Below are positions 17,599-57,791 of a stretch of 64,000 nt of DNA, in pieces (the stretch's first letter is position 1; each line of letters starts with the position of its first letter). This DNA is from a virus. Taxonomy: Duplodnaviria; Caudoviricetes. The translations under genes and the position numbers were made by a program. The stretch covers positions 32,001 to 96,000 of IMG/VR virus record IMGVR_UViG_3300043093_000048; one strand, written 5' to 3'. The notes beneath the pieces are model-generated. The model was not told where the DNA came from and ran no database searches. It worked only from the letters and a program-made list of their open reading frames with translations.

Positions 17599-18516
17599 TT
17601 GAAAAAACTAAATTATGAAGATGTTAGAAATTATATTAATTCTACAGGAGAAACTTTAATCTCTAAAGAATATATCAATTATAATTTTAAATTAAATATT
17701 AAATGTAATAAATGTGGTAATATATACGGTATGAATTTAACTAATTTTAAAAAAGGAAAACGTTGTAATAAATGTGCTAAGAACTTAAGAATAAAAAAGA
17801 TGAAACTAAATTATGAAGATGTTAAATCTTTTATAAACTCTACAGGAGAAACTTTAATCTCAACTGAATATAATAATTGTAAAGAAAAATTAAATATTAA
17901 ATGTAATAAATGTGGTAATATTTATTCTATTAGATTTTGTAATTTTAAACAGGGTAATAGATGTAATAAATGTTCTATCAAAGAAAGAAATGATAATAAT
18001 AAACTTCTTTATGAAGATGTTAGAAATTATATTAATTCCACAGGAGAAGAATTAATTTCTAAAGAATATAAAGGTTGTAAAACTTCTTTACAAGTTAAAT
18101 GTAAAAAATGTAATAAAATTTATAAAGTTCGTTTTAATGATTTTAAACAAGGAAATAGATGTTCTTATTGTAAAGCTTCAAAAGGTGAAGAACGAATTAG
18201 AACATGGCTTGAAAATAATCATTATACTTTTGAAGAACAATATAAATTTGATGATTGTAAATATAAACGTTATTTGCCATTTGATTTTAAATTAGAAGAT
18301 AAGAATGGTAAAATAATTTTAATAGAATATGATGGAATACAACATTATCAAGAATCTTTTTATGGTAATAATTTAAAAGAACAGAAAAAGAGAGATTCCA
18401 TCAAAGACGATTATTGTAATTCACATGATAATATTGATTTATATAGAATTCCTTATACGGAATTTAATAACATAGATTCTATTCTTAAAGATATTTTTAA
18501 TAAATATATATTATAA
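17599..18516 (+). CDS. Free-standing homing-endonuclease-like protein (3 zinc-ribbon repeats + Vsr-like/EDxHD nuclease)
   Basis: Three KCxKC...RCxxC repeats; C-terminal LPFDF...IEYDGIQH...D..K..YC...RIPY. Confidence 0.8.
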   Translation: MKKLNYEDVRNYINSTGETLISKEYINYNFKLNIKCNKCGNIYGMNLTNFKKGKRCNKCAKNLRIKKMKLNYEDVKSFINSTGETLISTEYNNCKEKLNIKCNKCGNIYSIRFCNFKQGNRCNKCSIKERNDNNKLLYEDVRNYINSTGEELISKEYKGCKTSLQVKCKKCNKIYKVRFNDFKQGNRCSYCKASKGEERIRTWLENNHYTFEEQYKFDDCKYKRYLPFDFKLEDKNGKIILIEYDGIQHYQESFYGNNLKEQKKRDSIKDDYCNSHDNIDLYRIPYTEFNNIDSILKDIFNKYIL

Positions 18517-48986: not shown

Positions 48987-49580
48987 ATGAATATTTTTAA
49001 AGGAGTAAATAAAATGGTAAATCTAATTAAAAATGAAAATGATTCAATTCTTAAAGTGGATGGTACTGATTTTAAGATTTCTAATGAGCTAGCTAGTTTT
49101 CTAGAAGCTACTAATAGTCTTAATGATGATACTATCACTAAAACCATCAGCAAAGCTGGTGTAATTACATTGAAAATTAAGAGTCTTACTTACACTATCT
49201 GTAATGATAATAAGAAAAAGATCCTTAATATGTACAAAATTAATAATAATGAAGGAGTAATTCATATGAAGACATTTATCAAGTTTATGAAACCAAAGCA
49301 GGAAAGTGGTAAGAAGAACCCTTTTAATTCTCTTATTCTAAGAGTACTTAAGCCAGCACTTAATAACGTGGAATTTGAAGATATTGATGCTGTAAGATCT
49401 ACAGTATATGATACACTTAAGCCACTTATGAGTGAAAATTCTAAGTGGGAAATTGAAGATAATACTAAGACACTTGGTCTTGTTGTAAAGAATGAGTATC
49501 TTAAGGAAGGTAAGGAATATCCTTCTCATAATATCTTCTTTATTAATGTAGTACCAGAAGAGTCTACAGCATCTGAATGA
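48987..49580 (+). CDS. Hypothetical protein (start may be ATG 49014)
   Basis: AAGGAG before 49014; terminator at 49587-49619. Confidence 0.7.
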   Translation: MNIFKGVNKMVNLIKNENDSILKVDGTDFKISNELASFLEATNSLNDDTITKTISKAGVITLKIKSLTYTICNDNKKKILNMYKINNNEGVIHMKTFIKFMKPKQESGKKNPFNSLILRVLKPALNNVEFEDIDAVRSTVYDTLKPLMSENSKWEIEDNTKTLGLVVKNEYLKEGKEYPSHNIFFINVVPEESTASE

Positions 49581-49667
49581 TATATAAAAGGTATAAGCTT
49601 TAAAAGCTTATACCTTTTTATTAAACAAATTTTAATTTATATAATAAATTTTAGGAGGACTATTGTC

Positions 49668-50123
49668 ATGGAAGAAAGAATTGAAAAATTTACAAATAAA
49701 GAATTTTATGAGGTAGTTAATAAAATTTCTACTGCAGTTATTAAAAGAGTATCATCAATTGAAATGAATTCTATTATAATTAGAGCTAATATTAATGATT
49801 ATTATATTTTTATTGGAAAAAACTTATTTATATTTTCTCTTAAAGAATATAGCGATGATAAATATATTACATTTGAACATATTCTTTTAATTAATAAAAA
49901 AAATCATAGTGTAAATAATTTTAATGATATTAAACTAAAAGATATATCAATTACTGATAATAGCGATACTATTGGTGATACTATTGACGAATTAATAACG
50001 GAAATAAACTATCAAAATGATAAAGAATTTAATAATATATTACTATCTCGATATCAAATTTATAAAAAGAATCTTATCTCAGAAATTGAGAAAGTTAAAA
50101 ATTATATTGAATTAGTGTTTTAA
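49668..50123 (+). CDS. Hypothetical protein
   Basis: AGGAGG RBS; C-terminus (EI..V.NYIELV) resembles the next gene. Confidence 0.7.
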   Translation: MEERIEKFTNKEFYEVVNKISTAVIKRVSSIEMNSIIIRANINDYYIFIGKNLFIFSLKEYSDDKYITFEHILLINKKNHSVNNFNDIKLKDISITDNSDTIGDTIDELITEINYQNDKEFNNILLSRYQIYKKNLISEIEKVKNYIELVF

Positions 50124-50134
50124 AAGGAGTTATT

Positions 50135-50533
50135 ATGATAATTAAATGTAAAAAAGATTTTGAAGCTTTTGTAAGTGTTATGATTGCATCTTGTATAAAG
50201 AGTGATAAGAAAATTTATATTTATGAAGAAAATAATATAAAAACTAATAATATGATTTATAAGCATGTATGTATTGAAAAAGATGTTTTTTCATTTATTT
50301 ATAGTTTTTCTAAAACATCTAGCCTTCAGTTTGCTCATCAAAAACTTGATTCAGAAAGAATTTATAATATGTTTAAACAAGGGGAAGAAATTTCTTCTAA
50401 TATTAATCTTTATCTTATTGATTGTGAACATAGTTTAACACATGATTTTAATCTTACTTTATCAAATGAAGAAATCAATAAAGAAATTCATTCAATATGT
50501 AATTACATTGAAGTTGTACTTAATGTAATCTAA
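50135..50533 (+). CDS. Hypothetical protein
   Basis: AAGGAG RBS; ends EIHSICNYIEVVLNVI; terminator at 50550-50595. Confidence 0.7.
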   Translation: MIIKCKKDFEAFVSVMIASCIKSDKKIYIYEENNIKTNNMIYKHVCIEKDVFSFIYSFSKTSSLQFAHQKLDSERIYNMFKQGEEISSNINLYLIDCEHSLTHDFNLTLSNEEINKEIHSICNYIEVVLNVI

Positions 50534-50617
50534 AATAAATAAATTTTAATTTAATACATAAGCTTATTTTAAATAAGCTTATGTATTTTTTTTTTTGTAT
50601 TTAATTATAATGCTGAA

Positions 50618-50817
50618 TATATATTATAATTGCGAATAAAGTATTTAATTACTTATATTCATACTTAGTGTAGATAATTAAATCCAATAAGCACTTAAAT
50701 AAATATTGGAGTTTGTATGTTCCCTTCGAAGAAACTCTTGGTTGAAAAGATATATACCATATAAGAGATAACAGAGTAAAGGTAAATTAGTACAAATATA
50801 TCTTGGAGGTCATTATG
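50618..50817 (+). ncRNA. Repeated early promoter + structured 5' leader, copy 2
   Basis: Same conserved blocks as copy 1 with compensatory stem changes. Confidence 0.75.
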
Positions 50818-51282
50818 ACTAATCGGGCTAAAGAGAGTAAAGAAAAATGTGTGAATATGTTCACTTTTCAACTTCCGCTTATCCTGAGTACTTATCAGCT
50901 ACATGCTAATATGAAAAACACTCAAGAAGGCTTAGCTGAAATACCCGAAATCAAATTGGATGAAAATATGGCTAAGAGCTTAATCTTATCCAATTCCATT
51001 ATTCTTGAAAAAGATAATGGAGAAAAAACGATCTATGATTTATCTTATGATGAGTCTATAGATTGTATTGAGGAGTATGATCATGAAAGTGACGATATTC
51101 GCCGTTATTGTGCTAGCGTTGATCGTGATATCGATTATTCTAAGAGAATAACAAACGCAACATCAAGTCTTCTTAATCTCATTATGGATAAAAAGCTTTA
51201 TGTCATTTCCATCATTAATGGTGGAGTATGTCTTAAAGAAAGTGAAGGTGAACATGTGTATAGACTGTATTCAAAAGATTAA
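50815..51282 (+). CDS. Small hypothetical early protein (cassette 2)
   Basis: ATG after GGAGG in the leader; terminator at 51323-51354. Confidence 0.75.
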   Translation: MTNRAKESKEKCVNMFTFQLPLILSTYQLHANMKNTQEGLAEIPEIKLDENMAKSLILSNSIILEKDNGEKTIYDLSYDESIDCIEEYDHESDDIRRYCASVDRDIDYSKRITNATSSLLNLIMDKKLYVISIINGGVCLKESEGEHVYRLYSKD

Positions 51283-51392
51283 TCAATAAAATGTGTGGAA
51301 AGGAGAATGATATTGATGATTAAAAAACGTACTGTAATGGTGCGTTTTTTTTTTAGTAAAAATTATTGACTGTATTTAATTATAATGCTGAA

Positions 51393-51584
51393 TATATATT
51401 ATAATTGTGAATAAGAATAATTTATATTCTATTCAAATAAGGATGAGTATGAATCTAGTAGCCTTATTACTAGAAATTTGTATGTTCCCGAAAAACATGT
51501 ATGGTTGAAAAGATATAATACCAATATACATGAGAAAAGAGTAGGTAAATAGTACAAGTTAATATTCAAAAGGAGTTTATTATG
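51393..51584 (+). ncRNA. Repeated early promoter + structured 5' leader, copy 3 (more diverged)
   Basis: Conserved loops retained; stems fully covaried. Confidence 0.7.
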
Positions 51585-51989
51585 TTTACTATTAATTCTG
51601 TTGAAGATTTCAAAATGATTGTAAAAAGAGTTTTAGAAGTTGCTGCAACAGGTGAAAAGGACATAAGAACTGTAAAATCCTTTAACGATAACGATGATGA
51701 CTGGTTTGTAGGAATCGTCATTGAAGATGATGAAGCTCGCAATATGGTTACAATTCAGGGAGGAAGAAATAATGACTATATTGTAGCAGATCTTTTCTTT
51801 AACGTTAAGGAGAAGGATGTAAATCTTCTTATGAATGAAAAGTATTACGGAAACGGTAATCTCTGCCATCTGGTTAGAGTTAATGAAGATTTTACCGCAG
51901 TGCTTTCCATTCGCAGATTTATCGACAATGAAGAAGACTTTGAAGCCCTTGTCGGTACGGTAAAGTTTATGGTTATGAAAACATCATAA
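51582..51989 (+). CDS. Small hypothetical early protein (cassette 3)
   Basis: AAGGAG RBS at the end of the leader. Confidence 0.75.
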   Translation: MFTINSVEDFKMIVKRVLEVAATGEKDIRTVKSFNDNDDDWFVGIVIEDDEARNMVTIQGGRNNDYIVADLFFNVKEKDVNLLMNEKYYGNGNLCHLVRVNEDFTAVLSIRRFIDNEEDFEALVGTVKFMVMKTS

Positions 51990-52113
51990 TCTAAACAATA
52001 AAAAATAACGGCACTCTTACATATTCATCAAGCTGTTTTAAATTGAATTGTAGAGTGTCGTTATATTATTCACATACGCCTAAAAAATTAATTTTATTAA
52101 AGGAGAAAAAAAA

Positions 52114-52335
52114 ATGAACAATATCTTTGAAATGAACAACAATAACATGATGAGTGACCTGAACAAGGTCTTTGAAGCAAACAGAAAGCAGGATGAAAAA
52201 ATGGCGGAGAATATCCGTAACATGACAGGAAATAAAAAGCCTGCAACTGAAGCCATCAAAAATCTTTGGGAGCGTTATGCTCTTGAAGGAAATATTGAAG
52301 GTATGGAAAAACTCGAACGAGTTTATTCTATCTAA
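52114..52335 (+). CDS. Small hypothetical protein
   Basis: AAAGGAG RBS; terminator at 52346-52378. Confidence 0.65.
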   Translation: MNNIFEMNNNNMMSDLNKVFEANRKQDEKMAENIRNMTGNKKPATEAIKNLWERYALEGNIEGMEKLERVYSI

Positions 52336-52429
52336 CAACTTCAATGTACCCCCTTTAATTAGGGGGTATTTTTTTTTTCATTAAAGTTTAAATATTTATA
52401 TTATTATTAAGCAAAGGAGTTGATTTATA

Positions 52430-53368
52430 ATGTCAAAAAAGTATACTATTGATGATATTAAAGAAATGATTTATAATAAATATAATGGAGAATATATTTG
52501 TTTATCAAATGAATATAAAAATAATAAAGAGAAAATTAAGATAAAGCATAATATATGTAATAATATATTTGAAATGAGAAGTGGTAATTTTTTAAATAAT
52601 AATAATCGTTGTCCTTACTGTAAGAATAAAAATGATGGAAAAACTAATAAAACAGTTACTAAAATGACTAAAGAAGATTTTATTAAACGTTTAGATAATG
52701 ATTATGAGTTAGTCAGTGATTTTATTAATTTAAAAACTAATGTAGACTTATTACATAAATCATGTGGTAATATTTATAATGTAAGACCCGATAATTTTTT
52801 ATATAATAATCATAGATGTGAATGTACTAGAGTTAAGCATAAATATACAATAGAAGATATTCAAAAGTATTTTAATAAAATAAATGACTATGAACTAATT
52901 TCTAAAGAATATGTCAATAAAAATGAAAAATTAAAAATTAAGCATTTATCATGTGATAATATATTTGAAATGTCATTAAATGATTTTAAGAATAATAATT
53001 ATAGATGTCCTAAATGTAAAGCATCTAAAGGAGAAAATAATGTAAGAACTTTTCTATTAAATAATAATATTAAATTTACTGAGCAAAAGCGTTTCAATGA
53101 TTGTAAAGATAAAAGAACTTTACCGTTCGATTTTTATTTAGAAGATTATAATATCTGTATAGAATATGATGGTGAATTACATTATAATAAAGCTAGATAT
53201 AAAAATGATGAAGAATATAATCAGGATAAATTAAATATTACTAAAAAACATGATGAAATTAAAAATGAATATTGTAGAGTAAATAATATAAGACTTATTA
53301 GGATTCCATATACAGAGTTTGGTAATATTGAAAAGATTCTTAAAAAGGAGTTGAATATTAATGCCTAG
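52430..53368 (+). CDS. Zinc-ribbon-repeat/Vsr-like endonuclease, tandem copy 1 (3 repeats)
   Basis: KHxxC...RCPxC repeats; LPFDFYL...IEYDGELH. Confidence 0.82.
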   Translation: MSKKYTIDDIKEMIYNKYNGEYICLSNEYKNNKEKIKIKHNICNNIFEMRSGNFLNNNNRCPYCKNKNDGKTNKTVTKMTKEDFIKRLDNDYELVSDFINLKTNVDLLHKSCGNIYNVRPDNFLYNNHRCECTRVKHKYTIEDIQKYFNKINDYELISKEYVNKNEKLKIKHLSCDNIFEMSLNDFKNNNYRCPKCKASKGENNVRTFLLNNNIKFTEQKRFNDCKDKRTLPFDFYLEDYNICIEYDGELHYNKARYKNDEEYNQDKLNITKKHDEIKNEYCRVNNIRLIRIPYTEFGNIEKILKKELNINA

Positions 53369-54095
53369 AAAATTAACTTATAAAGAAGTTAAAGATATTA
53401 TAGAAGAAAATGGTGAATATACTTTATTATCTAAAGAGTATTTAAATAATAGACAGCATTTATTAATAAGACATAATTGTAATAAATGTAATAATAATAT
53501 CTTTGAAAGAAGTCTTTATGTATTTCAAGCAGGTAAAAAATGTCATAAATGTGCTATAATAAATAGAACTAAATTAAAAACTAAAACTACTGAAGAATTT
53601 AAAGATGATATTAAAAGAATATTTAATGATGAAATGGAAGTTATAGGAGATTATAAAAATAATAAAACTAAAATATTAATGTATAGTAGAAAGTGTGGTC
53701 ATTATTTTGAAGGGTATCCTATAAATCTTTTAAAAGGTTGTGGATGTAATATATGTACTATAAGATCTAAAGGTAATGAAAAAATAGATTCTATATTAAA
53801 TGAATTAAATATAAATCATAAGTCTGAATATAAATTTGAAGATTGTAAATATAAAAGAACTTTATCATTTGATTTTTACTTAGAAGATTATAATATCTGT
53901 ATAGAATATGATGGAGAACAACATTATTCTAAGAATACTTTTAGATATGGTGAAAAATTTGAAGAACAACAAAAACGTGATAATATTAAGAATAATTATT
54001 GTAAAACAAACAATATAAAACTTATTAGAATTCCTTATACTGAATTCGATAATATTGAAAACATTCTTAAAGAGAATATAAAAGGAGAAAAATAA
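53361..54095 (+). CDS. Zinc-ribbon-repeat/Vsr-like endonuclease, tandem copy 2 (2 repeats)
   Basis: FDFYL...IEYDGEQH; start overlaps the previous gene. Confidence 0.82.
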   Translation: MPRKLTYKEVKDIIEENGEYTLLSKEYLNNRQHLLIRHNCNKCNNNIFERSLYVFQAGKKCHKCAIINRTKLKTKTTEEFKDDIKRIFNDEMEVIGDYKNNKTKILMYSRKCGHYFEGYPINLLKGCGCNICTIRSKGNEKIDSILNELNINHKSEYKFEDCKYKRTLSFDFYLEDYNICIEYDGEQHYSKNTFRYGEKFEEQQKRDNIKNNYCKTNNIKLIRIPYTEFDNIENILKENIKGEK

Positions 54096-54096
54096 A

Positions 54097-55020
54097 ATGT
54101 CAAGAAAATATACTATAGAAGAAGTTAAAAATATGATTCATGATAAATATAATAGTGAATATATTTGTATATCGGAAGAATATATTAATAATAAAGAAAA
54201 GATTAAAATTAAACATTTGAAATGTAATAATATATTTGAAATGAGATTAAATAATTTCTTATTAGGTAATAAATGTCCTTACTGTAAGAATAAAAATGAT
54301 GGAAAAACTAATAAAACAGTTAAGAAAATGACTAAAGAAGACTTTATTAATAAATTAGACGATGATTATGTATTAATAGGAGATTTTATTAATCTTAAAA
54401 CTAATGTAAATCTATTACATAAAACTTGTGGCAATATTTATAATGTAAGACCTGGAAATTATCTTTATAATAATCATCGTTGTAACTGTACTAGAACTAA
54501 ACATAAGTATACTATTGAAGATATTCAAGAATTCTTTAATAAAATAGATGATTATGAATTAATTTCTAAAGAATATGTAAATACAATTAGTAAAATTAAA
54601 ATAAAGCATTTAAAATGTAATAATATATTTGAAATGAGATTTAATGACTTTAAAAATAATAATAATAGATGTCCTAAATGTAGTTCTTCAAAAGGTGAAA
54701 ATATTATAAGAACTTTTCTATTAAATAATAATATTGGTTTTATTGAACAAAAATGCTTTGAAGATTGTAAAGATAAAAGAGTATTACCATTTGATTTTTA
54801 TTTAGAGGATTATAATATACTTATTGAATATGACGGTGAATTACATTATAAAGAAAGTAGATATAAAAATAGTCAAGATAAATTAAATATTATTAAAAAT
54901 CATGATAATATTAAGAATAATTATTGTAAGGAAAATAATATAAAACTTATTAGAATACCTTATATAGAATTTAATAATATTGAAGAAATTCTTAAAAAGG
55001 AGTTGAATGTAAATGGGTAA
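54097..55020 (+). CDS. Zinc-ribbon-repeat/Vsr-like endonuclease, tandem copy 3 (3 repeats)
   Basis: Repeat region close to copy 1; nuclease-coding DNA partly identical to copy 4. Confidence 0.82.
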   Translation: MSRKYTIEEVKNMIHDKYNSEYICISEEYINNKEKIKIKHLKCNNIFEMRLNNFLLGNKCPYCKNKNDGKTNKTVKKMTKEDFINKLDDDYVLIGDFINLKTNVNLLHKTCGNIYNVRPGNYLYNNHRCNCTRTKHKYTIEDIQEFFNKIDDYELISKEYVNTISKIKIKHLKCNNIFEMRFNDFKNNNNRCPKCSSSKGENIIRTFLLNNNIGFIEQKCFEDCKDKRVLPFDFYLEDYNILIEYDGELHYKESRYKNSQDKLNIIKNHDNIKNNYCKENNIKLIRIPYIEFNNIEEILKKELNVNG

Positions 55021-55933
55021 AAAATTTACTTATACAGAGGTTAAAAATATTATAGAAAAAGAAAATGGATATATTCTAATATCTGAAGAATATATTAATA
55101 ATAGACAAAAATTAAAAATAAAACATTTAGAATGTAATAATCTATTCGAAATGGCATTTACAAATTTTTATAATTCTGGTAATAGATGTCCTTATTGTGC
55201 AAATAAAATAAGAAATAGAAATAATAAATATAAAATAAGTGATATAAATAGTTATATGAAAAAATTTGGTTATGAATGTTTATCGAAAGAATATCAAAAT
55301 TACCGACAAAAATTAAAAATAAAACATTTAGAATGTAATAATATATTTGAAATGACTTTTGATAATTTTAAAAATGGTAAAAATCGTTGTCCTTACTGTT
55401 CTAATCATATTAAATATACTATAGAAGATGTTAAGAAAATAATTAAAGATAAAGATCCTGATTATGAATGTTTGTCAGAAGAATATATTAACAATAAAAC
55501 TAATTTAAAAATTAAACATCTTAAATGTAATAATATTTATGAAGTAAATTTAAATAATTTTTTGAATAAAGAAAATAGATGTCCTTATTGTAAGACTTCT
55601 AAAGGAGAAAAAATTATAAATGATTATTTATTAAAGAATAATATAAAATTTATAAGAGAATATAAATTTGAAAATTGTAAAGATAAAAGAGTATTACCAT
55701 TTGATTTTTATTTAGAGGATTATAATATACTTATTGAATATGACGGTGAATTACATTATAAAGAAAGTAGATATCGTGATTCTAAATATAATAAAGATAA
55801 ATTAAATAAACAAATATTACATGATAATATTAAAAATGAATATTGTAAAAATAATCATATAAAACTTATTAGAATACCGTATACAGAATTTAATAATATT
55901 GAAGAAATTCTTAAAGAAGAATTAAATTTGTAA
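55013..55933 (+). CDS. Zinc-ribbon-repeat/Vsr-like endonuclease, tandem copy 4 (3 repeats)
   Basis: KHLxC...NRCPYC x3; LPFDFYL...IEYDGELH. Confidence 0.82.
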   Translation: MGKKFTYTEVKNIIEKENGYILISEEYINNRQKLKIKHLECNNLFEMAFTNFYNSGNRCPYCANKIRNRNNKYKISDINSYMKKFGYECLSKEYQNYRQKLKIKHLECNNIFEMTFDNFKNGKNRCPYCSNHIKYTIEDVKKIIKDKDPDYECLSEEYINNKTNLKIKHLKCNNIYEVNLNNFLNKENRCPYCKTSKGEKIINDYLLKNNIKFIREYKFENCKDKRVLPFDFYLEDYNILIEYDGELHYKESRYRDSKYNKDKLNKQILHDNIKNEYCKNNHIKLIRIPYTEFNNIEEILKEELNL

Positions 55934-55938
55934 TAAAA

Positions 55939-55975
55939 TTCCCCTAAGACTTTTATAGTCTTAGGGGTTATTTTT
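55939..55975. terminator. Bidirectional terminator between the nuclease array and the capsid gene
   Basis: CCCCTAAGACT/AGTCTTAGGGG hairpin. Confidence 0.8.
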
Positions 55976-56021: not shown

Positions 56022-57791
56022 TTAAACTCTATCGTAAACAGAACCATCATTATTCTTAATAATGATCTTTGCAATAATAGGTACGTATTCTTCTAATGTA
56101 TCACGCTTTGTGAGCATTATAGATGGTACATTAGCGTTAACAGTATTTAAATAATTCTTAACAACGTTGAATGTATATGGATAATATTCGAATGTCTTGA
56201 ATTTATCGGTTGTTGGAACGAAGAACATAGTTAACTCGCCCTGTGGAATTAAGTCAGAAGAAATAATAGTATACTTATTAGCACCAGAAATAGCACCAAT
56301 AGAATATTGAACTTCTACACCGTTCTGCTGATCATTTACAGAATTAAATGACCAAGAAACGTTAGGAAGAATATTTGTATCAATTGGATTACCAATAATT
56401 ACAAAGTAACCATTATAGCACTTATAATCGCCACGCATCTTAGTAGCAAGTAAATCAAATAACTTCTTAAGTTCATTTAACCATTCAGAAGGATTCATTG
56501 CAAAGTGACCAGAAGGATATACATTAAAGCTCTTTCTATACTGAGCTTCAGTACCTTCATAAGCTCTCATTAAGAACTGATAAATTCTCTGGTCTAACTT
56601 CTGAGCACAAACATTAGACATGATATCGATTAATTCAGCAGCGCCATCAACCTGATACATAGCCTTTACGTCCTGAAGGAATTCAAGAGGTAAGGATGCT
56701 TCAATGTGTTCGCCTGTTCCGATTTCGATATCCTTCTTATCCATTTCAAAGTCAACGTTGGTAGACTTCTGATGTGTTTCAGAAGATAAGAATGCCATTA
56801 CACGAACCTTAGTAGCTCTACCAGACATAGAAACGAATTCTAAGAAACCATTTTCAAGATCTACAGAACCAAATACAGTATCCTTAACAGGAGTTAAATT
56901 ACCATCCTTATCATATTCAGTAAAGAATACGTCAGAATAAATTCTTCTGTAAAGGTCAACCTTTGCATTAACCTTAATAGGAGTTTCTACATAAGTACCA
57001 TCTGCACCACATACTGGATAGTAAACATCTGTTACAACAAACTTTCTATCTACAGCATAACGAGCATCGTTTGTAGGATTCTTATGATCAAAGATTGTAG
57101 AACCTGTAAATAAGTTAAATCTTTCAATCTTACCACCCTCTGCAAGAGCGATTACACCCTTATCAATAGGAGTAGCAGCTGTCTTATCATCTGTAGCTTC
57201 ATAAGTATAAGTACCATCAGCTTCAGAAATAGTAATAGTAGAATAGAACTTAGTTTCTGCAGGATCACCATCAAAATCAGGATTCTGAGCTACACCATCA
57301 TTCATAGGAAGCTGATAAAGTTCAGCTAATTCATTATCCTGCATATTAATAGATTCTGGTAAGTAATGCTTTGTCTTACCATCTGCGCCTAAAATATATG
57401 GCTTCATAAATGCTACAGAGAATGCAGGAACTGTTACTGGCTCAGTTGGAACTGCATACTTTAAGCTTAAACGTGCCCAAAGCTTAACAAGAATAGGCAT
57501 TGTTAAAGAAGCATAAGGCTGTACGCCTTCTAAAGATTCAGTTAAAATAGATTCTCTTGTAGAATCTGCCATTTCATGGATCTGAGCACATTCAGTAGCT
57601 TCAAAACCTTCACAAAGATGGCTCATATAATCCTCATATAAAACATTGTCAGTTAAAATATCTTCAAAATTCTTACCAATGATGTTTGTCTGATGTCTCT
57701 GAGCAAAGTAATCCTGTGTCTCAGAAAGTCTTCTAGAGAAAGCATCCTGTGGTGAAGATGTAGTAACTTTCTTTTGATAAATTACACTCAT
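56022..57791 (-). CDS. Major capsid protein precursor
   Basis: gp23-like layout (ILTE|S propeptide junction, LTMPILVK, TEPV, LEFLQDVKAMYQVDG, gp23-like C-terminus); highly biased codons; late motif 57899-57910. Confidence 0.8.
   Translation of the reverse strand: MSVIYQKKVTTSSPQDAFSRRLSETQDYFAQRHQTNIIGKNFEDILTDNVLYEDYMSHLCEGFEATECAQIHEMADSTRESILTESLEGVQPYASLTMPILVKLWARLSLKYAVPTEPVTVPAFSVAFMKPYILGADGKTKHYLPESINMQDNELAELYQLPMNDGVAQNPDFDGDPAETKFYSTITISEADGTYTYEATDDKTAATPIDKGVIALAEGGKIERFNLFTGSTIFDHKNPTNDARYAVDRKFVVTDVYYPVCGADGTYVETPIKVNAKVDLYRRIYSDVFFTEYDKDGNLTPVKDTVFGSVDLENGFLEFVSMSGRATKVRVMAFLSSETHQKSTNVDFEMDKKDIEIGTGEHIEASLPLEFLQDVKAMYQVDGAAELIDIMSNVCAQKLDQRIYQFLMRAYEGTEAQYRKSFNVYPSGHFAMNPSEWLNELKKLFDLLATKMRGDYKCYNGYFVIIGNPIDTNILPNVSWSFNSVNDQQNGVEVQYSIGAISGANKYTIISSDLIPQGELTMFFVPTTDKFKTFEYYPYTFNVVKNYLNTVNANVPSIMLTKRDTLEEYVPIIAKIIIKNNDGSVYDRV

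Follow-up and report, generated by a model that had tools for sequence, protein, structure and literature searches.

Four adjacent genes, which we call c1 to c4, occupy 52430-55933 of a 64,000-nucleotide (nt) stretch of viral DNA, the window, that corresponds to bases 32001-96000 of a 265,109-bp IMG/VR virus record and has a G+C content of about 25%; coordinates are given in window numbering. All four lie on the + strand and are tightly packed: c1 (52430-53368; 312 amino acids, aa), c2 (53361-54095; 244 aa), c3 (54097-55020; 307 aa) and c4 (55013-55933; 306 aa). There is an 8-nt overlap between c1 and c2 and another between c3 and c4, 1 nt separates c2 from c3, and a Shine-Dalgarno sequence, AAAGGAG, precedes each start from within the final codons of the preceding gene. 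Each protein consists of zinc modules of about 63 aa followed by a nuclease domain. With a repeat hidden Markov model (HMM) we find three modules in c1 (52436-52630; 52646-52831, an H..C...CxC variant; and 52838-53026; nuclease 53027-53365), two in c2 (53367-53561 and 53577-53765; nuclease 53766-54092), three in c3 (54103-54294, 54310-54498 and 54502-54690; nuclease 54691-55017) and three in c4 (55019-55207 and 55223-55408, which are internal duplicates, and 55409-55600, which resembles the third module of c1 and c3; nuclease 55601-55930). The same model finds about 20 paralogs holding 65 modules across the genome, and other paralogs of this genome are intron-borne. An earlier note, made from the DNA sequence alone, had described four translationally coupled open reading frames (ORFs) with two or three repeats each, a nuclease motif FDFYL..IEYDGExH and related genes at 17599 and 25597. 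It was accurate on all of these points: the four frames are present on the + strand, all 11 modules are detected by HMMs built without them, the motif occurs in 4/4 proteins, and both related genes were found, that at 17599-18516 carrying the four-residue segments NLTN, RFCN and RFND.

The modules of the array appear to be zinc domains of the CapR/DUF4379 type. HMMs derived solely from modules of paralogs or homologs give all 11 of them 44-78 bits, and the consensus is roughly KKTTEEFKKEVYDLVGDEYxVLxEYINNKTKIKIKHNKCNNxFExxPxNFLxGxRCPxC. Two pairs of zinc ligands are present, in the pattern C/H-x2-C ... C-x(1-2)-C. Taking positions as columns of the module alignment, as we do throughout, among the 65 in-genome modules column 37 holds His 57 times and Cys 7 times, column 40 is Cys in 63/65, column 57 is Cys in 65/65, and column 60 is Cys in 62/62 modules having a residue there. 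The second pair is CxC in the middle modules of c1 and c3, and CapR likewise has CxC. Among Pfam families, DUF4379 (treble-clef zinc finger) alone passes its cut-off, and for c4 only (25.9 bits vs 24.5). The cut-off of CapR (PF21817; 24.2) is exceeded by a paralog from the same genome (P0089; 44 bits), and homologs at 40-46% identity (P0002, P0004 and P0008) score 55-59 bits with this family; NCBIfam returned generic zinc-ribbon noise only. CapR is a repressor of a phage satellite (PLE) in which four cysteines are required for specific DNA binding, and its homologs include N-terminal domains of homing endonucleases from phages, AR9 and PBS1 among them (PMC8096241). The repeats that the earlier note took for zinc modules appear to be of a type, the CapR homology domain, that binds DNA by way of its cysteines in experiments with PLE CapR, the only protein for which zinc-dependent, sequence-specific binding has been shown (PMC8096241); in c1 to c4 the modules are putative DNA-binding domains.

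An AlphaFold2 (AF2) model of c4, built from a 68-sequence alignment, has a predicted local distance difference test score (pLDDT) of 94 and contains three copies of a helix, three strands and a short helix, with a second zinc knuckle after each, followed by an alpha/beta nuclease domain. When a single-module AF2 model (pLDDT 82) was compared with 48,161 PDB representatives, nothing exceeded a VIA-align Z of 4.0, so that the DNA-binding face of the module is not inferable by homology; trypanosomal mitoribosome assembly proteins, which filled the top rows of this search (Z <=4.0), were treated as no match. We note that in Foldseek and VIA-align searches with one model (m2d78b79b3289), mitoribosomal chains of apicomplexan, ciliate and trypanosomatid origin (9g6k_L9, 9i05_Xg, 6z1p_AS and 6sga_Fd) recur weakly after the Vsr-type matches, with Z up to 4, probability 0.9-1.0 and a low TM-score; the likeness may possibly be to small zinc-binding repeat modules, and it is too weak to interpret.

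The nuclease domain has the fold of the Vsr-like EDxHD endonucleases, the group with which the earlier note had compared it. All four proteins match phrog_559 (E 1e-64 to 1e-80; c1, 3e-76; c2, 6e-64; c3, 3e-80), whose label, 'HNH endonuclease', is a misnomer. In a Foldseek search with the c4 model, ranks 1-4 are taken by 3r3p, the catalytic domain of I-Bth0305I (E 1.1e-3, TM-target 0.63), and by 1cw0 and 1vsr, Escherichia coli Vsr (E 3e-3 to 6e-3), all at probability 1.00. Across 68 homologs, residues E199, D231, E242, D244, H248, D271 and K274 either never vary or are retained in at least 90%, and the spacing of D231 and H248, 17, equals that of D196 and H213 in I-Bth0305I, an equivalence based on spacing and motif and not on a residue-level structural alignment. 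On Pfam, the nuclease yields sub-threshold DUF559 and DUF2726 matches only. The catalytic-type residues E, D, H and D are present in c1, c3 and c4, whereas c2 departs from this at the first Glu: near residues 136-146 (window 53766-53800) c2 reads SKGNEK, where c1, c3, c4 and at least 90% of the 68 homologs read SKGE, so that the near-invariant Glu of the SKGE helix, probably the 'E' of EDxHD, has moved by one residue. c2 also has His or Ser at some of the usual zinc-ligand positions, in addition to having two modules only.

The array lies beside the gene for the major capsid protein (56022-57791, - strand), which is the conserved neighbour of endonuclease insertions. Because this protein is 45% identical to those of Bacillus phages AR9 and PBS1, the source of the DNA is, to judge by its capsid protein, an uncultured AR9-like jumbo phage. 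An intrinsic terminator of the upstream unit of small genes (52346-52369, + strand; a 9-bp stem with 5 GC pairs, then a T-run) is followed by the start of the array's own transcription unit, at which the motif TATATTAT-6N-G (52397-52411, + strand) agrees with the core of the consensus for AR9 early promoters, AAATATATATTAT-(6N)-G (PMC5312081), and may by analogy act as an early promoter for the virion RNA polymerase; the Shine-Dalgarno sequence of c1 comes after it, at 52413-52419. There is no terminator within the four genes, and an 11-bp bidirectional intrinsic terminator (55941-55967) is common to the array and the convergent capsid gene. An Rfam search of 49-58 kb returned 0 families and no recognisable intron, and we therefore rejected an intron-borne origin of the array. 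The overlaps, the embedded Shine-Dalgarno sites, the flanking terminators and the lack of an internal terminator or intron all argue for a coupled four-gene operon. With its early promoter motif, coupled translation and one terminator, a single early-type transcription unit is as well supported as sequence alone allows, and early timing would follow from the promoter analogy. We also note that + strand TATATTAT motifs occur at 50620, 51395, 52062 and 52397, at an irregular spacing of about 335-775 bp.

Related phages differ in what they carry at this site. Two of them, L001 and L002, have capsid proteins 85-86% identical to that of this phage (L002, 86%). In L002 the capsid gene is followed by 110 bp and then by the homolog of the window gene at 48987-49580, with no endonuclease gene at the site, whereas in L001 a single gene of 685 aa lies between the capsid gene and that homolog, with the same ...ELNL C-terminus, a homologous terminator hairpin and a promoter of early type. 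In this phage the same site holds about 6.4 kb, made up of small early genes and the four endonuclease genes. The synteny in relatives that the earlier note had thought worth examining is thus that of an insertion and deletion polymorphism, the capsid-adjacent site holding no endonuclease gene in L002, one fused gene in L001 and four here. Presence in some phages and absence from others at a fixed capsid-adjacent site is what one expects of homing endonuclease genes that are free-standing, and on this comparison beside a conserved gene c1 to c4 would be mobile. The 685-aa ORF of L001, a related 306-kb phage (9885-11942, - strand), looks like a fusion of two endonucleases: its first half, which resembles paralog g193178 of the genome studied here, joins two zinc modules to a nuclease-like core (IAFDFD..YYHSE) and a GNAT/Mom-like tail, and its second half has two zinc modules and a c4-like Vsr nuclease. 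The small early-type genes at 49581-52429, about 2.8 kb that is extra relative to L002, lie between the conserved 197-aa gene and the array.

Homologs of the individual proteins are abundant. We found 4007 proteins at E<=0.001 among 8000 candidates scored, and 501 phage records, mostly from Staphylococcus, Enterococcus, Bacillus, Streptococcus and Campylobacter phages, contain homologs that are full-length and 25-39% identical. For c3, the closest relatives in IMG/VR show 30-39% identity across most of its length, and up to 52% when the nuclease alone is considered. A Megablast search with the array found no match in 50,697 phage records, and 17 IMG/VR loci sampled contained no coupled four-gene array and coupled pairs at most (for example, L010).

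The four genes are themselves related by duplication. Since the segment that contains c1 and the start of c2 (52426-53485) aligns with the segment that contains c3 and the start of c4 (54093-55140) at 81% nt identity, a two-gene unit appears to have been duplicated. c3 is the collinear duplicate of c1, at about 81-83% nt identity along the whole length, and the ratio of nonsynonymous to synonymous substitution rates (dN/dS, or omega) between the two is 0.25 overall and 0.19-0.40 by region, so both copies are maintained by selection; we rejected the idea that they are decaying duplicates, given the values of 0.19-0.40 in every region. c4 is a chimera, because its N-terminus is c2-like while its third module and nuclease are c1/c3-like (72-77% to c1 and c3 vs about 50-60% to c2), and its modules 1 and 2 are an internal duplicate pair (71-77% nt identity). 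The earlier note had seen the genes as mosaics on the basis of a 101-nt and a 49-nt identity, both of which are exact. That between c3 (54764-54864, + strand) and c4 (55674-55774, + strand) spans the catalytic core (KRVLPFDFYLEDYNILIEYDGELHYKESRY) and contains 27 consecutive polymorphic sites that are identical (permutation p<=1e-4), a gene-conversion tract. The 49-nt identity between c1 (52610-52658) and c3 (54274-54322) is weak evidence of conversion, because the two genes are so similar throughout, and we gave it less weight; a GENECONV-like test of c1 and c3 reached only p=0.016, and did so on the C-terminal 175 codons, a region without the 49-nt run. The mosaic description holds for the duplication of genes and modules and for the c3/c4 conversion, and less for the c1/c3 run. 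The further proposal that repeat shuffling has diversified recognition gained no support from conversion within the array: the sole statistically solid tract sits in the nuclease core, where it homogenises the copies, so that what evolves in concert here is the nuclease and recognition is not diversified by it. Shuffling of modules does occur in the family, since two adjacent paralogs outside the window, g128633 and g129921 (G000:C1:128633-130820), share modules in permuted order, g128633 module 2 being 82% identical in nt sequence to g129921 module 1 and g128633 module 1 being 70% identical to g129921 module 3.

We consider it likely that c1 to c4 are free-standing homing endonuclease genes of the family that joins a CapR-like zinc-module array to an EDxHD/Vsr-like nuclease, with a role in spread and exclusion beside the capsid gene. 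Each protein would probably dimerise through its Vsr-like C-terminal domain and make a double-strand break, with the two or three independently folded zinc modules holding the protein on a long target and adding specificity, and the array would be expressed as a single early transcription unit. As to its origin, a two-gene unit would have been duplicated (c1c2 giving c3c4), after which a module was duplicated within c4; recombination would then have given c4 its c1/c3-like third module and nuclease, and the very recent c3-c4 gene conversion would have come last. The array seems to occupy a hotspot of presence and absence immediately downstream of the capsid gene, a putative target location, and its most likely role would be selfish spread together with marker exclusion upon co-infection with related phages that lack it. 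Several results weigh against this interpretation. CapR PF21817 is absent from the Pfam output for c1-c4 at E<=0.1. Neither phmmer nor a 68-sequence profile matched 3r3p or Vsr among all PDB sequences, so that kinship to I-Bth0305I and Vsr is by fold and motif only; this failure agrees with the 'distantly related outgroup' of PMC12350094. c2, without the near-invariant Glu at its usual position, may be catalytically weakened. Finally, four copies in a row exceed what homing needs, and an added or different role is therefore possible.

The earlier note had proposed a zinc-finger- or TALE-like code in which each module reads a short sub-site by means of a few hypervariable residues, shuffling re-programs the arrays and the four enzymes form an arsenal against several targets. 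We regard this as unlikely, and the data on the variable segment, columns 47-50, bear on it from both sides. The 11 four-residue segments listed by the note are exact and all different. This is the most variable four-column window of the module (mean entropy 2.61), with 60/65 in-genome modules distinct, and it is flanked by the most conserved windows. The segment is really x-P-x-N, however, with column 48 Pro in 42/65 modules and column 50 usually one of Asn, His and Asp; variability peaks at column 49 (3.48 bits), column 47 has 2.78, and columns 53, 55, 61-62 and several of the N-terminal helix are about equally variable. When 493 modules were taken from 116 homologs in other phages, the most variable columns were 55, 61, 53, 30, 47, 49, 62, 45 and 50. 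A fast patch thus exists where the note had placed it, but it is somewhat wider than was supposed and not uniformly hypervariable.

Rates of replacement lend the proposal some support. Among 17 phylogenetically independent close module pairs (68-82% nt identity), replacements affect 54% of positions in columns 47-50 vs 34% elsewhere (Fisher p=0.0015). The highest per-column dN/dS values are those of columns 49 (2.3), 53 (2.3), 55 (1.7) and 47 (1.7), which in the AF2 model cluster in the stretch that runs from where strand 3 ends, through the short helix and the next loop, to the second knuckle. These values come from Nei-Gojobori counting, which is crude in a gene of 22% GC, and columns 47 and 49 were picked after the data had been seen. 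For a set of columns defined externally, from the modules of other phages (45/47/49/50/53/55), omega is 1.43 vs 0.47 for the scaffold, and the dN/dS contrast that the earlier note had thought worth examining is in this sense present; the bootstrap interval of the 1.43, 0.94-2.15, nevertheless includes 1, so that neutral drift of exposed residues explains the rate equally well and positive selection is not established. N-terminal helix positions 6, 7, 10 and 18 and linker columns 61-62 are nearly as fast. The variable patch therefore evolves at or slightly above the neutral rate, which fits either diversification of specificity or an unconstrained surface. We infer from strand periodicity that the conserved Lys residues of strand 2 (columns 32/34/36) and the variable columns 45 and 47 would share an exposed face of the sheet, suiting DNA binding.

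The permuted order of modules in g128633 and g129921, the duplication of modules inside genes and the 'beads on a string' model already proposed for CapR repeats (PMC10448857) are also what a modular code would lead one to expect. Yet the only strong conversion tract is in the nuclease and not in the modules, and a simple code of this kind is argued against by I-Bth0305I, in which the central 14 bp contacted by the nuclease dimer give most of the specificity and the N-terminal contacts are largely non-specific (PMC3239194). That columns 47/49/53/55 form a specificity patch under diversifying selection that reads a short DNA sub-site, with arrays re-targeted by module duplication and shuffling as a naturally evolvable zinc-module nuclease platform and the operon serving for multi-target exclusion of related phages or of thymine-containing host DNA, strikes us as similarly doubtful. 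The idea of a weapon against relatives or the host is speculation, and is not separable from ordinary free-standing homing or marker exclusion.

It is very unlikely that c1 to c4 are take-over or exclusion enzymes, and not mobile genes, that would cut thymine-containing host or competitor DNA early in infection while the phage's own DNA is protected, for example by containing uracil as in AR9 and PBS1. An AR9-type early promoter motif lies upstream, four different enzymes belong to one early unit, and this AR9/PBS1-like phage has no detectable ThyA or ThyX thymidylate synthase gene in its complete 265-kb genome (G000), an absence that is compatible with uracil-containing DNA. Such DNA in this phage would, however, rest on analogy to AR9 and PBS1, presence or absence at one site in relatives is the pattern of a mobile homing gene, and the intron-borne members of the family in the same genome imply that the phage's own DNA is spared by site specificity and not by base modification. 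Least probable of all is that some or all copies, c2 especially, have been domesticated as DNA binders that no longer cut, serving in repression or anti-defence as CapR and the CasPR anti-CRISPRs do. In favour of this, CapR domains, which are also present in CasPR anti-CRISPR repressors, serve as repressors there and in PLE CapR, the conserved Glu of c2 is shifted by one residue and the copies are under purifying selection. Against it, the nuclease core D, E, D, H, D, K is intact in 4/4, the catalytic core of c3 and that of c4 are kept identical by the conversion tract, and the known domesticated forms are without any nuclease domain.

Our preferred interpretation, of free-standing homing endonuclease genes, places c1 to c4 among systems that are already known, and the design that had seemed novel to the earlier note has been published (PMC10448857, PMC12350094). 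A 2025 paper describes 3-5 CapR-like domains of about 60 aa followed by an EDxHD/Vsr-like domain of about 100 aa, and presents this architecture, located in introns of RNA polymerase genes of jumbo phages, as 'a large unrecognized outgroup' of EDxHD endonucleases that numbers thousands of members (PMC12350094). Those endonucleases, from introns of groups I and II in AR9/PBS1-type virion RNA polymerase genes, share with c1 to c4 the architecture, the kind of phage and modules related to Pfam CapR/DUF4379/DUF723, but c1 to c4 are free-standing, form a coupled four-gene early unit beside the capsid gene and have two or three modules. I-Bth0305I, the prototype EDxHD enzyme (PDB 3r3p), is the best structural match of the nuclease, with the same Asp-17-His spacing, and it too has an N-terminal DNA-binding region and a C-terminal nuclease; it differs in that there is no detectable sequence similarity, in having two NUMOD2-like helix-turn-helix motifs and no zinc modules at its N-terminus, and in being intron-encoded (PMC3239194). 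In T5orf172 homing endonucleases, Barth et al. described CapR/DUF723/DUF4379 modules repeated like 'beads on a string', together with repeat recombination, the shuffling of domains and 'islands' of endonucleases adjacent to essential capsid genes (PMC10448857, 2023). The T5orf172 endonucleases of the vibriophage ICP1 thus share repeated CapR-type modules, repeat recombination and a capsid-adjacent location with c1 to c4 (PMC10448857, PMC8096241), but their nuclease is related to GIY-YIG and is not Vsr-like, and they belong to another phage lineage and host. Full-length homologs in the same phrog are the Hef/phrog_559 'HNH endonuclease' genes of Staphylococcus, Enterococcus, Bacillus, Streptococcus and Campylobacter phages, which differ in that a genome usually has one or a few of them, scattered, and which are commonly mis-annotated as HNH. 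The array is therefore a tidy new example of a published design and not a new kind of system; what appears to be new here is the four-gene early-type unit, its history of two-gene duplication and conversion, the empty and fused sites in relatives and the mapping of the fast columns.

The family comprises thousands of proteins, in hundreds of cultured phages, most of them mislabelled 'HNH endonuclease'. With 65 modules in 20 paralogs, and with four recently duplicated and constrained copies adjacent to one another, this phage provides a rich natural experiment, in which the candidate specificity positions have been narrowed to a handful of columns and the empty site of a related phage offers a concrete substrate for cleavage mapping. 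Modular reading of DNA, if true, would make these arrays a compact alternative to zinc-finger or TALE arrays; if the reading is not modular, the locus is a clear example of selfish nuclease genes multiplying and homogenising beside an essential phage gene.

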